Source of the DNA: an uncultured Methanosarcinaceae archaeon
Lineage (GTDB): Archaea; Halobacteriota; Methanosarcinia; Methanosarcinales; Methanosarcinaceae
Assembly: GCA_963847185.1 (NCBI GenBank)
Contig: CAWJYV010000008.1
Location: forward strand, 704,001 to 768,000
Length of the DNA stretch: 64,000 nt
Direction of reading: 5' to 3'
Shown here: in pieces, positions 39,986 to 44,461 of the stretch
Layout of the letters: each line of letters opens with the position of its first letter
Numbering within the stretch: the stretch's first letter is position 1
The notes under the pieces: model-generated
Databases searched by the model: none
Told to the model about the DNA's origin: nothing
What the model saw: the letters and a program-made list of their open reading frames with translations, nothing else
Position numbers and translations under genes: made by a program

Positions 39986-40909
39986 TTATTCCCCTTTGTA
40001 TATTTTCAGGGCCTGTTCGACGCTTGAGTCCTCAACAGTTATAGCGTAAACTGCATTGCACATGCGGACAGCTTCATCAAGGGATTTCTGGTGGATATTT
40101 CTTCCTGTTGCGTTCCCCTTAGCTCCTGAGATGTGGATCTGGTCATATAACTTTTTCAGGAAAGCTTCAGCCTCATCACTCGTGCCGCCTGCACAAACAA
40201 CTCTGGTGCGTCCGGCTGCTTTGACAGCTTCTTTGAAGATCTCAGCCGATTTTGCCCCTTCCTTTTTGGGGTAATTGACCTTTACAAAATCAGACCCAAG
40301 ACAGGCTCCAACGCCTGTAGCCCCTGCAATCAGGTGAGGATCCTTTTCGTCCTTTACTGCAGTTCCACGGGGGTAGATCCAGAGTACTGAAAGCATTCCG
40401 TGTTGATGGGCATCGTAGACTACCTGGGCAGCCTGTACAAGCATCTCGGCTTCGAACTCACTGCCGAGGTAAATCGTATAACCTACACCAAGAATATTGA
40501 GCCCGCTGTTCTCCTTAAATTCAGCAACCTGGTCCACGTCATACCAGAGGTTGCTAAAGGGATCGGCCTGTGAAGTTTCTACAAGGTGGGTTTTTGAGTT
40601 TACTTTAATAAGATACGGTATATCTCTGTAATCCATCCCATAACGTGCAATTAGCCCAAGCTGGGCTGCAAAAACTCCTATTTTTGCCTTGGATGCTATT
40701 CTAAAAAGGTGTTCTGGATCAGCATCGTCTTCAGGTACTCCTTCTCCATAAAAATCGTCATTTAGATGCTCTACTTTCTGATCGCCTGCAAAAAGCATGA
40801 GTCTGTCCGTGCCTTTTGTGATCTCCATATAGTTCTTTATGTATGTTTCACGCATTGCTTTCGGAACGTCTAAAGGTACGATTACGTTTTCTTTGTTGAT
40901 TGAAACCAT
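39986..40909 (-). CDS. class I (DhnA-type) aldolase, likely fructose-bisphosphate aldolase
   Basis: FAGDQKVEH, WIYPRG, LGSDFVKVNYP Schiff-base Lys, AGG and GRNIHQ motifs; co-oriented with pyk. Confidence 0.88.
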   Translation of the reverse strand: MVSINKENVIVPLDVPKAMRETYIKNYMEITKGTDRLMLFAGDQKVEHLNDDFYGEGVPEDDADPEHLFRIASKAKIGVFAAQLGLIARYGMDYRDIPYLIKVNSKTHLVETSQADPFSNLWYDVDQVAEFKENSGLNILGVGYTIYLGSEFEAEMLVQAAQVVYDAHQHGMLSVLWIYPRGTAVKDEKDPHLIAGATGVGACLGSDFVKVNYPKKEGAKSAEIFKEAVKAAGRTRVVCAGGTSDEAEAFLKKLYDQIHISGAKGNATGRNIHQKSLDEAVRMCNAVYAITVEDSSVEQALKIYKGE

Positions 40910-41312
40910 TTGTATAAACCTCAGTCTGATTGAGTAGCAGTAATTGGATTGTACTTAATACTGTGAAACCTTATTTATTTATTACCTATATTCCCTCTTA
41001 CTAGCTTTATAATTTTTTGCATTCAGTATTGAGGGTTTTTGAGGTTTTATATCTGTTAATTATACTGTTGAAATTTCCAACTCTTCAAGAAGATTATAAA
41101 ATCTATTTAATTAAAAGCTAGTATGTTCAGAAAACTTAAAAATCTGATCAGTTAGTAGATTTTATGTATTTAAAAACTGAAATTTAAAACTTAACATATA
41201 ACAAAAGAAATTTTGAAAAAGTCTTATAAGAGATAAATTCAAGAAAAAGATCTAAAAATAAATTAAAGTAATAAGTATTAGAACAAAATAGGTAAAAATG
41301 TAAACATTTCTA

Positions 41313-41385
41313 CGCCGCTTGCAGGGCTCGAACCTACGACATTCTGGTTAACAGCCAGACACTCTACCAACTGAGTTAAAGCGGC
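41313..41385 (-). tRNA. tRNA-Asn(GTT)
   Basis: Reverse complement GCCGCTT...TCTGG-CTGTTAA-CCAGA...GGTTCGAGCC...AAGCGGC-G. Confidence 0.96.
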
Positions 41386-41460
41386 TTTCTGATTGGACAT
41401 CTATTCTATCCCTTACTCTCAAACCTTATTATAAAAGAAGGTTTCCTGATATAAAGCTTA

Positions 41461-41535
41461 TGGGCCTGACCGGATTTGAACCGGTGACCGCTCGGTTATG
41501 AGCCGAGCGCTCTAACCTGACTGAGCTACAGGCCC
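41461..41535 (-). tRNA. tRNA with CAT anticodon, most likely tRNA-Ile2
   Basis: GGGCCTG...CTCGG-CTCATAA-CCGAG...CAGGCCC-A; intronless, G1-C72 pair, so not the initiator; Ile2 versus Met is inferred. Confidence 0.88.
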
Positions 41536-41639
41536 TGATTGTTTCTAATATAGTAGTCTTTAGTAAGGCTTTAATAATAAACTTTTTGCATGTGTTTCTA
41601 TTTACTAGAAAAAGCGCTATAATTTATGCAAAAACTTCA

Positions 41640-41712
41640 CGCCGCTTGCAGGGCTCGAACCTACGACATTCTGGTTAACAGCCAGACACTCTACCAACTG
41701 AGTTAAAGCGGC
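41640..41712 (-). tRNA. tRNA-Asn(GTT), identical second copy
   Basis: 73-nt sequence identical to 41313-41385. Confidence 0.96.
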
Positions 41713-41940
41713 TTATGCTATCGGATGTGCTTATTATAGCCACCCTATCGCGAACACTCTTAAAGCGACGATCTTATTTATATATTTCGCTTGGAGCAGT
41801 TGTCACAAACAACTTTACAGATACTTTCTAAAGTACTTTCATGTGCAATCTTATTTTATCTGCTCCAGCTTTCTTTTTATATCATTCCCTATCAGAGGCA
41901 TCCTTTTTCCTCTTAAGTGATATAAATTTGATTATTTGAG

Positions 41941-41958
41941 CCAAAAAACCTTATATGC
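41941..41958 (+). promoter_or_regulatory. BRE/TATA candidate for the microprotein operon
   Basis: ccaaaaaacc-ttatatgc, divergent from the tRNA genes. Confidence 0.55.
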
Positions 41959-42274
41959 CTTCAGGAATAATATATTTACTTATCTGTTGTAGTATTTTAC
42001 AACAAAGTCGGACAGATTTGATTTTTAAGCAGTAAGTTTCCAGTTTGGATATAAATGCTTCTACTGAGGCCCTGTCCGGGGGAATTTATTCCAATTAAAG
42101 TTCGAAGAAGGTCAAAAACGTCTTTAAACTAAACTTCAAGGGTTAAGGTCGGTTACTTCATCTAACTGGAAATATTTTAAATTCTTTGTAGTTTTCCGGA
42201 AAATTTGCGGTTCTATTGGAATCTGACCTAATAAACCTTGCAGTTTTAAAAATGGAAATCAAGGGGGATTATTC

Positions 42275-42415
42275 ACGAAACTACTAAAAATATGCCCAAA
42301 ATGTCACGCAAAAATGATGCTGAGTTCAGACGGAAAAAGAGAGATCTGTAACGTTTGCAGGTACTGGACAAAAGTAGGTACGGCAAGGCTTGATTCGATC
42401 ATGATTTATGAATGA
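42275..42415 (+). CDS. zinc-ribbon microprotein 1 (46 aa, non-canonical ACG start or start-loss allele)
   Basis: (M)KLLKICPKCHAKMMLSSDGKREICNVCRYWTKVGTARLDSIMIYE*; AAGGGGGA SD just upstream of ACG; two CxxC pairs. Confidence 0.7.
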   Translation, partial: TKLLKICPKCHAKMMLSSDGKREICNVCRYWTKVGTARLDSIMIYE

Positions 42416-42445
42416 GGATCTTGAGTGGAGAGTGACAGTTTTTAT

Positions 42446-42601
42446 ATGTTTTGCACTGTATGTAAAACTATCTTGAAACGCCAGATTCTGGGCTCCAATG
42501 TCTTCTACTATTGCCGAAACTGTGGATGCGTGAGCTCGGAAGCATATCTGTCAAAAGAAGTAAACACGTTCGATATTCAGGAATCAGCATCTGCCAATTA
42601 G
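42446..42601 (+). CDS. zinc-ribbon microprotein 2 (51 aa)
   Basis: MFCTVCKTILKRQILGSNVFYYCRNCGCVSSEAYLSKEVNTFDIQESASAN*; GGAGAGTGA purine-rich site upstream; CxxC...CxxCG. Confidence 0.78.
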   Translation: MFCTVCKTILKRQILGSNVFYYCRNCGCVSSEAYLSKEVNTFDIQESASAN

Positions 42602-42801
42602 GTATCTGCTGTTTCTTAACTACGCTTGCTGAAGATGCTAAACTTTTGTGACAGAGACTCGATATGGTAAAAGTATTTTTGAGATTAGATTCGAAAAAAA
42701 GAGATTTTTTAAAAGAATCCCATGAGACTCTTGTTTTCTTTTTTTAATTTTAAGTCTCAGAGATTCTTTCTATTTTTTGTCCTGTTATTGAAACTCTTTT
42801 T

Positions 42802-43851
42802 TCAATTTCCGGCTTTGAGCAATTTACAGACATTTTCTACTTCTGTCCTGAACTCTTCCTGAGTAACTCCATAAAGGCCTGCAAGATACATGGCACCTCC
42901 TGCACCTGCACCTTCCTTAATCGTCCCTGTCTCGTACCTGTGTAGCCCTTTGAGAGCGGATTTTCCAAATCCAGGATCAGCAACGTAGACCACTGGAACT
43001 TCCAGGGTTCTGGTAAGTTCGATAAAGTTTGCAGATTTATCCTCCACCACATAACGGGTAGTTGCTATTGCAAGCTTTTCTGTATTGAATCCCAGATGTT
43101 TGATCACGGCATAGACTGCTGCCATCTGAGTCCCGCCTGCAAGCACAATGCTTGTTTCCGTACCCTGAAAACCTGCAACAAGACCTACAACAGCAGGCAT
43201 CATGGGGTCCCCCATGCAGGCAATAGCTTTCATGGGGTCGTCTTTCAGGCATCCAAAGGTCAGGCCTGAAGCTTTCATGCCTTCTTCAACAACCTTTTTC
43301 TTAAGCTCAAGAGGGTTTTCATCCGCGCTACTGCTGACATTACCATTGTATCCCAGTGCCATTAAAACCCCCATTGCCGTTGTTGTACCTCCGGGGATGC
43401 TTTCTCCGATGACTACATGGTCTGCCTGGTTTCGGAGCCTTTTTGCCAGGAGTTTTGCTCTCTCATAAATGCCCTGTACGTCCTGCACTGCAACAGGCTC
43501 CCTTATATCTTCTCCCGGCTTTGCTTTTATGTCAATACAGGGAACTTCTGGAGTTACAATAAGACCGGAGTTTATGAAATGGTAGGGGACATCCGTAAGC
43601 TTCAAGGCTGAACGGGTCATGATTGCAGGAGTTGGAGTGTCATAAGGGGGAGTCATGGGAAGCACTGGTACACTGATAATTCCTCCTGTGTCCATAAGCT
43701 CCGCATCCCCTGCAGGTGTATAGTCCGTAAGTTCAGCTGTTTTCCCTGCAGCTGAAAGCTTCGGAATATGTGCAGTTTTAGTATTGGAAAGCACGCATAG
43801 AAACATTGGTTTTTCAGGTTTTCTGGTTACTTTCGGTTCAATCCAGGCCAT
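42802..43851 (-). CDS. cobT: archaeal-type nicotinate-nucleotide:base phosphoribosyltransferase CobT
   Basis: [27 protein letters not shown] and KEGAGAGG motifs. Confidence 0.92.
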
Positions 43852-44461
43852 TTCATATCTCCTCTACGGAATAAGATGAAGATTAAAACAAATACTTTGA
43901 CAAACATTAAAGCAAATATTAAAGTGAGCATTAAGTAAAGGTTAATTCCAAGAATACTTGTTTCGGGATTTTTTATGGGCAATTGAATCTTTTACAGCTG
44001 TTCGTAGTGAAATTACAAATGTAACTTCCCCGAAATCCAATGAGAATTCTTCAACTTACTATTTAACATTTATCCATATACAAATATATTTTACTTTTCT
44101 TCAACTTAAGTTTTCTTTATTTCATCTAAGTTTCGGAGGCAGATGCTTATCTTGTGCCTAACTTTTGATAAAGATCAATTGATTCACTCTACGGTCGCAA
44201 TTCATATTCTGATAATTTTGATTCTCATAGCTGCCAGGTACGAGGTAATCAGACTTCAAAGTTATACTTGCAGAAAAAATAGAGTTAAAGAGAATCGCGT
44301 GAAATTGAGTCCTTTGCCGTCAGATTCTCAATTTCTACGCTTTTCATTTTATTAATTTTGAAGTTATTATGCAGAGCCAGGATAAGTCACAATTCGGGAT
44401 AGATCTGGACACTGGCTTTCCGGACTCCGAATTAAAAAAACTTTTATCGTTTTTTTCACAC

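Follow-up and report, generated by a model that had tools for sequence, protein, structure and literature searches.

Two small genes in an apparent gap

We analyzed a stretch of 64,000 nucleotides from an uncultured Methanosarcinaceae archaeon (assembly GCA_963847185.1, contig CAWJYV010000008.1, positions 704,001 to 768,000), referred to here as the window, with positions counted from its first letter. In a gap between a tRNA gene cluster and a CobT-like gene, its plus strand carries two consecutive open reading frames (ORFs), ORF1 (42275-42415) and ORF2 (42425-42601), each encoding a microprotein with two CxxC cysteine pairs. The patterns are CPKC-14-CNVC in ORF1 and CTVC-16-CRNC in ORF2, and both frames are present as described in an earlier note on this DNA. 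ORF1 runs over 46 codons from ACG to TGA (42413-42415) and ends in an invariant C-terminal tail. ORF2 encodes 58 amino acids from GTG to TAG (42599-42601) and is included in the ORF listing of the window in this form. The ACG codon of ORF1 is conserved across two genera and the pair is preceded by a dedicated structured leader RNA of no known class; these are the distinctive features of the locus.

The gene boundaries differ in part from those first proposed. For ORF1 the length of 46 codons stands; the codon that had been written as a bracketed methionine is ACG (42275-42277), not a canonical start. No ATG, GTG or TTG occurs in this frame from the preceding stop up to the first CxxC pair, and the ORF that opens at an ATG in the same frame is only 33 amino acids long (42314-42415) and lacks the first cysteine pair. 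The ORF2 frame is likewise real, with its start at GTG 42425 rather than at ATG 42446, from which a protein of 51 amino acids had been read. This position aligns with the start codon in all of a first set of 20 orthologs from syntenic loci, where it is ATG in 17 and GTG in three (the window, L002 and L011); we used the same set for the analyses of stop spacing, substitution rates, promoter motif and ribosome sites. Since ATG 42446 is internal, the two ORFs are 9 nt apart and not 30 nt as had been reported, and 18 of the 20 orthologs share the 9-nt spacer.

Conserved Shine-Dalgarno (SD)-like sites precede both ORFs, in agreement with the earlier proposal of a ribosome site before each. That of ORF2 (TGAGGAT, 42413-42419, plus strand) overlaps the ORF1 stop codon. 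The dinucleotide GG directly follows this stop in 19 of the 20 orthologs (L019 is the exception), and the stop itself is TGA in 44 and TAA in two of a larger sample of 46 syntenic loci from 46 genomes, 40 of them from the genus of the window and six from a sister genus. At the other end of the pair, the ORF2 stop at 42599-42601 is also found in the closest relative. Most orthologs run 15-20 residues further, and the profile match likewise extends beyond the stop; the variable C-terminal tail of ORF2 has been shortened in the window lineage.

A DNA search of 41 genomes returned a match in 23 of the 24 congeneric genomes besides that of the window and in none of 16 genomes from other families. 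Both frames are intact in all 20 loci of the first set, with ORF1 always exactly 46 codons long and ORF2 57-79 codons, and the ORF1 frame is whole at 46 codons in all 46 loci of the larger sample. Pairwise Nei-Gojobori ratios of nonsynonymous to synonymous substitution (dN/dS) among the 20 orthologs were 0.108 for ORF1, compared with 1.64 and 1.88 in its shifted frames, and 0.176 for the first 44 codons of ORF2, compared with 1.15 and 1.22. Third-position columns vary in 39 of 45 codons of ORF1 and in 41 of 44 of ORF2. All four cysteines are invariant in 26 aligned ORF1 and 21 aligned ORF2 sequences, while both TGT and TGC occur at each of the eight cysteine codons among the 20 orthologs. Judged by these patterns of substitution, ORF1 and ORF2 are genuine conserved protein-coding genes. 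The claim that such a tandem pair is unlikely by chance is borne out by the purifying selection on two intact ORFs in 20 of 20 syntenic orthologs, and the proposed check on conservation and cysteine codons came out in favor of the genes.

An ACG codon at the start position of ORF1

The codon at the ORF1 start position is ACG in all 46 loci. The 45 ORF1 nucleotide sequences that we compared for codon usage are all different, and every other invariant residue of ORF1 with more than one possible codon shows synonymous variation. Among the other invariant threonines, the first is encoded by ACA in 38, ACT in four, ACC in two and ACG in one of the sequences, and the second by ACT in 36, ACC in five, ACG in three and ACA in one. 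We therefore conclude that the ACG is held at the nucleotide level. It is preceded by the SD-like site AGGGGGA (42262-42268, plus strand), whose GGGGG core is invariant in the 20 orthologs and whose G-run stops 7 nt before the ACG in 38 loci and 8 nt before it in eight. Homologs define the same position: the solo paralogs L022, L023, L025 and L026, a second module in the same genome, and 46-amino-acid hypothetical proteins from Methanosarcina species in the databases all have ATG where ORF1 has ACG. Paralogs with an ATG carry G-rich sites at the same distance.

Upstream in-frame ATG, GTG or TTG codons are absent in 19 of the 46 loci, and an in-frame stop lies within five codons upstream of the ACG in 14. 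Locus L052 has TAA directly before the ACG, which is there the sole near-cognate codon ahead of the first cysteine. An A-rich element conserved at the nucleotide level (42243-42259, plus strand) contains an ATG (42252-42254), which in the window would open an 11-codon upstream ORF overlapping the ACG. This ATG, some 24 nt ahead of the ACG, shares the frame of ORF1 in 20 of the 46 loci and is shifted in 23, and three loci lack it. Because it is in frame in just 20 loci, it does not represent a conserved N-terminal extension. In L009 the upstream frame is broken by an indel that falls after the ribosome site and before the ACG; together with the varying frame of the ATG, this indicates that the stretch upstream of the ACG is conserved as nucleotides and not as protein. 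ORF1 most likely initiates at the ACG, a reading that we base on comparative sequence data. ACG is a weak near-cognate start codon. Our literature search for ACG initiation in archaea or in Methanosarcina returned nothing relevant, and the main text of a ribosome profiling (Ribo-seq) study of M. mazei reports only ATG, TTG, GTG and CTG as starts.

A structured leader RNA ahead of the pair

The earlier note had proposed a shared upstream TATA candidate. The TTTTAAAAAT near ORF1 is outdone as a promoter candidate by a conserved motif about 324 nt upstream of the ACG (41943-41958, plus strand), which consists of an A-rich run resembling a transcription factor B recognition element (BRE) followed by the TATA-like octamer TTATATGC (41951-41958). 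In all 20 orthologs of the first set the octamer TTATAT[CG]C is located 312-336 nt ahead of the ACG, and it was found at a leader-compatible distance of at least 280 nt in 43 of 45 loci scanned. Its position and composition suggest an archaeal promoter.

The structured leader mentioned in the earlier note is supported by our analysis. Its first domain (41975-42093, plus strand) comprises a hairpin P1, a long-range stem P2 (GGACAGG/CCUGUCC) that closes a junction with P3 and P4, and a single-stranded GGGGGAA segment. Independent single-sequence folds of divergent species gave the same architecture with one or two hairpins within the junction, and it is kept in the sister genus, where the inner hairpin P3 has a wholly different sequence. 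In a MAFFT alignment of 35 sequences, 91.5% of cells at paired positions can pair, versus 31-56% when the partners are slid. The covariance model R1 built from this alignment has 31 modelled pairs. In the model-fitted alignment, which leans towards the structure and includes among its 60 rows 14 partial antisense matches to a single palindromic hairpin, 16 of the 31 pairs show compensatory change, with 66 compensatory cells versus 17 in shuffled controls. RNAalifold on MAFFT alignments recovered part of domain 1 only.

This domain is linked exclusively to the ACG-type module. R1 matches full-length in 46 of 46 module loci and has a single match in the genome of the window, at domain 1 itself. 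At genome scale each of 20 genomes from the genus yielded a single match and six genomes from the sister genus yielded none, although all six are recovered by local searches at E-values of 0.0014-0.35. No match was obtained in 95 genomes of other genera, nor upstream of the second module or the solo paralogs in the loci available. Searches against Rfam 15 returned only tRNAs at E ≤ 1 (positions 40000-44000) and nothing relevant at E ≤ 10 (41940-42700). In the manner of riboswitches and protein-binding leaders, a conserved and structured aptamer-like domain is found upstream of the module in every locus, and domain 1 is a putative cis-regulatory element.

Domain 1 is followed by a small conserved hairpin and a short T-run (42108-42128, plus strand), a possible attenuator or pause site. 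RNAalifold places its helix in columns 146-151/158-163 of alignment A3, with compensatory change in two pairs; the copy in the window has one mismatched pair and a run of three T. A predicted second domain (42131-42247, plus strand) is a long imperfect hairpin that appears in the single-sequence folds of all four orthologs shown. To see whether leader structure masks the ribosome site, we took the mean pairing probability in 20 folds, for which there was no control; it was 0.59 for the G-run of the ribosome site and 0.23 for the ACG. One ACG-type module, L075 in genome G172, has a more compact layout: domain 1 ends about 25 nt before the ACG, the octamer lies 168 nt upstream, and the second leader region of about 140 nt seen elsewhere is absent.

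Contigs from RNA libraries are also available for this region. In two samples of one study (X3 and X4) they run unbroken from 42000/42003 to 42296/42307, that is from the leader into ORF1, and one 412-nt metatranscriptome contig spans 42252-42663 and covers both ORFs. Together these contigs fit one transcript of leader, ORF1 and ORF2. That the latter contig begins at 42252 says nothing about where transcription starts, as the ends of contigs and of transcripts are different things.

Predicted zinc ribbons

AlphaFold2 models ORF1 as a three-stranded ribbon (strands 13-16, 22-25 and 31-33) with a mean predicted local distance difference test (pLDDT) score of 74; the invariant C-terminal tail is poorly modelled, and this peptide looks like a docking motif. 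In ORF2 the strands are 18-22, 25-29 and 36-38, and the ribbon core has pLDDT values of 85-90. Both models show a three-stranded antiparallel sheet around the cysteine cluster, and the spacings of 14 and 16 residues between the CxxC pairs fall within the 10-20 residues of the beta-hairpin that separates the two knuckles of a zinc ribbon. Both proteins are modelled as Cys4 zinc ribbons and are putative zinc binders. A complex prediction for ORF1, ORF2 and two zinc ions gave a score of 0.01, which counts neither for nor against binding.

The nearest structural neighbors of both models are the N-terminal ribbons of archaeal TFS/TFS4 and of eukaryotic Rpb9/C11/A12.2, with E-values of 0.08-1 that are not significant. 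The best neighbor of ORF1 is the N-terminal ribbon of TFS4 (7oqy_Y; root mean square deviation, rmsd, 1.4 Å over 30 columns), and Rpb9 chains lie close to the ORF2 model (rmsd 1.4-2.1 Å over 33-36 columns). The corresponding profiles remain far below their cut-offs, at 14.9 versus 25.2 bits for PF02150 (Zn_ribbon_RPB9) and 17 versus 64.75 for TIGR01384 (TFS_arch). Moreover, TFS and Rpb9 have a second, C-terminal ribbon with an acidic loop, which is catalytic, whereas ORF1 and ORF2 consist of one ribbon each. The modelled resemblance may be no more than that of the generic zinc-ribbon fold. The top Foldseek neighbor of ORF2 is ZifS (TTHA0897) of Thermus thermophilus (PDB 8yoz), likewise a stand-alone small zinc-finger protein; the match (E = 0.076, rmsd 6.2 Å, 18% identity) does not indicate relatedness. 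For neither model did a Foldseek search of the PDB return a match at E ≤ 0.001, and the ESM Atlas returned generic zinc-ribbon look-alikes only.

Paralogs, distribution and annotation

The genome of the window contains a second complete pair, ORF1'-ORF2', with ATG starts and 45-47% identity to the pair described here (G000 contig 7, 394706-394976, minus strand; locus L030, 1311-1635); the leader RNA was not detected at this locus. Two further copies of ORF1 are present in the same genome, one of them again with ACG and beside a decayed ORF2 remnant. This duplicated module (G000 contig 10, 83165-83419, minus strand; L021, L029 and L035) has an intact ORF1; ORF2, with ATT in place of its start codon and stops within the frame, is decaying. 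The solo ORF1 paralogs were duplicated as cassettes of 164-228 nt and not within a larger mobile element. The 3-kb surroundings of the two solo ORF1 paralogs on contig 10 (L028 and L029) are unusually gene-poor, with almost no ORFs of at least 70 amino acids. A natural loss of ORF2 was seen in another genome, G062, where a frameshift and a stop, some 300-500 nt downstream from the leader match, disrupt the gene (L103).

Pairs of ORF1 and ORF2 were also read in sampled loci of four other genera, and the pair architecture is old. Within the family, the ORF2 profile matched 119 of 151 genomes, spread over 13 of 16 genera; in a separate comparison it was found in 33 of 33 family genomes versus one of 87 genomes from other families of the order. 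Among 1.84 billion proteins it retrieved 46 representatives at E ≤ 0.001, mostly of 40-80 amino acids, the long ones being repeat proteins. In other genera of the family, loci L048, L056, L058, L059 and L061 encode stand-alone ORF2-like microproteins with no ORF1 upstream. Their tail is conserved, differs from that of ORF2 and ends in a further cysteine (G-V-x-A-C-V); these proteins may form a third subfamily.

The pair had been described as hidden, and it is indeed largely unannotated. ORF2 is represented by six protein clusters among 5.8 billion sequences, one of them from NCBI, and ORF1 is annotated only where a spurious upstream ATG falls in frame (P0077 and P0085). A number of database proteins appear to be fusions. 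These are P0004 and eight of the 13 longer matches examined (17 were listed), which join ORF1 to ORF2 or a solo paralog to its downstream DNA (P0004, P0078, P0081-P0084, P0086, P0090 and P0092). We considered them as a gene-fusion (Rosetta-stone) argument and withdrew it, as the tryptophan in these proteins sits exactly where genomes have TGA. Since all of them come from short metagenome contigs and TGG occurs at the ORF1 stop position in none of the 46 genomic loci, they are most likely artefacts of gene calling with TGA read as tryptophan.

Surroundings of the pair

The cluster upstream consists of tRNA-Asn(GTT), tRNA-Met(CAT) and tRNA-Asn(GTT) (41313-41712, minus strand) and is divergent from the microprotein genes; the CobT-like gene downstream (42802-43851, minus strand) is convergent with them. 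No functional lead was obtained from these neighbors or from those of the second module. An inverted repeat with T-tracts (42711-42780, no strand assigned) lies between ORF2 and the CobT-like gene. The earlier note had read it as a hairpin with T-tract shared by the two ORFs. The repeat exists, and the 201-nt region around it has a folding z-score of -2.26, but it is conserved only in the closest relative; in all other relatives sequence conservation ends inside or just past ORF2. A scan for bacterial-type promoters and terminators, which was not made for archaea, found nothing. The repeat may act as a terminator and is a candidate only.

A proposed mechanism and its alternatives

The arrangement that we regard as reasonably probable is a bicistronic microprotein operon with a structured leader, an ACG-started ORF1, a coupled ORF2 and products that may serve as zinc-ribbon adaptors. 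Transcription would most likely start about 25 nt downstream of the BRE/TATA-like motif, which gives a leader of about 300 nt, and the first 120 nt or so of this leader would fold into the conserved multi-helix domain, with a putative cis-regulatory role. ORF1 would be translated from the ACG 7 nt after the GGGGG core of its SD site. Its output is presumably kept low, because ACG is a weak start, and may depend on leader structure or on the fidelity of initiation. The two genes are probably coupled in translation, because the ORF2 ribosome site overlaps the ORF1 stop. The products, each modelled as a single Cys4 zinc ribbon and with the ORF1 tail as a docking-like peptide, would most likely act together as small adaptors on nucleic acid or on the transcription or translation machinery, and they might bind their own leader RNA. 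A regulatory role for ORF1 and ORF2 is plausible.

A more specific version, which we put forward only tentatively and consider rather doubtful, is a translational-control device in which an obligatory ACG start is gated by a new class of leader RNA that acts as a riboswitch or is bound by the zinc ribbons. In that case the amount of ORF1 made would reflect some signal in the cell, for example zinc supply or the fidelity of initiation, and a new cis-regulatory RNA family would stand alongside what would be, to our knowledge, the first case in Archaea of a natural ACG start shared between genera.

Several observations weigh against the operon as outlined. Beside an intact ORF1, ORF2 has decayed both in genome G062, where an intact leader RNA and the ACG-type ORF1 accompany an ORF2 pseudogene, and in the duplicated copy in the genome of the window; the two genes are therefore not strictly interdependent. 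RNAalifold found no consensus pairs in the MAFFT alignment of domain 2, which makes this part of the leader weakly supported. The RNA data are assembled metatranscriptome contigs that may be DNA-derived and show no transcript ends. With regard to the proteins, no Pfam or NCBIfam model reaches its cut-off for ORF1 or ORF2, with only weak generic zinc-ribbon matches, and the Foldseek neighbors are generic zinc ribbons with non-significant E-values (lowest 0.076). Some species could make a longer form of ORF1, given the ATG eight codons upstream in frame in 20 of the 46 loci. Finally, the nucleotide identity of ORF1 to paralogs in its own genome (0.70-0.80) overlaps that among orthologs (0.75-0.98), and judged by identity alone ORF1 may have been homogenised by gene conversion.

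Three alternatives concern the ACG. It could be an internal threonine codon of a longer ORF1 that starts at the ATG eight codons upstream or further away. Apart from the 20 loci with this ATG in frame, forms of 82 and 90 amino acids are annotated from far-upstream ATGs in two genomes (P0077 and P0085). We nevertheless consider a longer ORF1 improbable: 19 loci offer no canonical start upstream, stops close the frame in 14 and directly adjoin the ACG in L052, the ATG is out of frame or missing in 26 and the upstream stretch contains indels, and the codon stays ACG in 46 of 46 loci, unlike the codons of the other invariant threonines, which vary. ORF1 could also be an untranslated relic, kept as part of the leader of ORF2 or homogenised by conversion from ATG paralogs. 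The lack of a canonical start, the ATG paralogs in the same genomes and the overlapping identities would fit, but the dN/dS of 0.11, the third-position variation and a frame of exactly 46 codons throughout speak against it, as does the retention of a strong ribosome site at an ideal spacing, and gene conversion should sometimes import an ATG, which is found in none of the 46 loci. This makes a relic quite improbable. Least credible, and in our estimate very remote, is a C-to-U edit that would turn ACG into AUG in the transcript, followed by canonical initiation. Such editing of start codons occurs in plant organelles and would explain why ACG is kept strictly rather than other threonine codons; we know of no mRNA editing of this kind in archaea. 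RNA-library contigs list no difference at 42276 (X2 record 5, X3 record 8 and X4 record 12), nor do two contigs from relatives, a comparison that is weak evidence, as contigs drop rare variants and may derive from DNA.

The remaining alternative concerns the leader. The segment 41975-42093 could be an independent small RNA ending near 42125, with the operon promoter closer to ORF1. The promoter-like motif directly upstream and the small hairpin with T-run directly downstream speak for such a gene; in addition, an A/T-rich element, TTTAAAAA, lies about 30 nt before the ACG, and one RNA contig begins at 42252. Against this, the X3 and X4 contigs continue unbroken from the structured domain into ORF1, the T-run has only 3-4 T, and the RNA is single-copy and, across all 46 loci, found only before the ACG module. 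The conserved ribosome site would moreover not be transcribed if the transcript began at the ACG. We regard a separate small RNA as unlikely and retain the leader of a bicistronic operon as the preferred reading.

Comparison with known systems

Haloarchaeal C(P)XCG microproteins such as HVO_0758, HVO_2753 and Brz of Halobacterium, as far as they are covered in the parts of the reports considered here (PMC6562870, PMC10716476, PMC2253796), resemble ORF1 and ORF2 in being archaeal proteins of fewer than 70 amino acids with a single four-cysteine zinc site that often escape annotation, and regulatory phenotypes have been reported for some of them. The C(P)XCG motif itself is not shared, as the residues after the four cysteine pairs are CPKC-H, CNVC-R, CTVC-K and CRNC-G, with glycine following only one of four. 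The NCBIfam model of the HVO_2142 type gave a best match of E = 0.35 and 10.8 bits versus a cut-off of 90, which indicates no sequence relationship. In contrast to the haloarchaeal proteins, the genes in the window are paired throughout, and the pair has an ACG start and a structured leader of its own.

Closer in taxonomy are the CxxC-x17-CxxC small proteins of M. mazei, from the same genus, which the sections of PMC12704099 considered here describe as unannotated Cys4 proteins with several paralogs per genome, two of them shown to bind zinc by ICP-MS (inductively coupled plasma mass spectrometry). They are Cys4 microproteins with paralogs like ORF1 and ORF2. Their spacing, however, is 17 (A00184/A01980) and not 14 or 16, and the cloning primers given in that report encode the N-terminus MAFND, unlike ORF1 or ORF2. 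By spacing and primer-encoded N-terminus, as available from these sections, the M. mazei group belongs to another family. Orthologs of ORF1 and ORF2 from M. mazei may already be among the entries of the small-ORF catalogues of PMC11456600 and PMC12704099.

With respect to initiation, a useful parallel is provided by bacteria. The infC gene has a conserved AUU start, which is neither AUG, GUG nor UUG and is used for control. As in infC, the near-cognate codon of ORF1 is conserved at an SD-defined position, implying initiation that is deliberately weak or sensitive to fidelity. ORF1 differs from infC in its codon, ACG, in belonging to an archaeon and in encoding a microprotein, for which no feedback loop is known.

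Implications

Among the regulators of archaea, small zinc-finger proteins form a class that is now emerging, and Methanosarcina is the main genetic model for methanogens. The locus described here adds two microprotein families that standard annotation has largely missed. Pipelines limited to ATG, GTG and TTG starts (and CTG) cannot call genes of the ORF1 type, and going by its main text the published M. mazei Ribo-seq analysis is among them. The leader is a candidate for a new cis-regulatory RNA in a domain of life with very few known. ORF1 offers a natural test case for non-AUG initiation in Archaea, in which the ATG paralogs of the same genome may serve as built-in controls.

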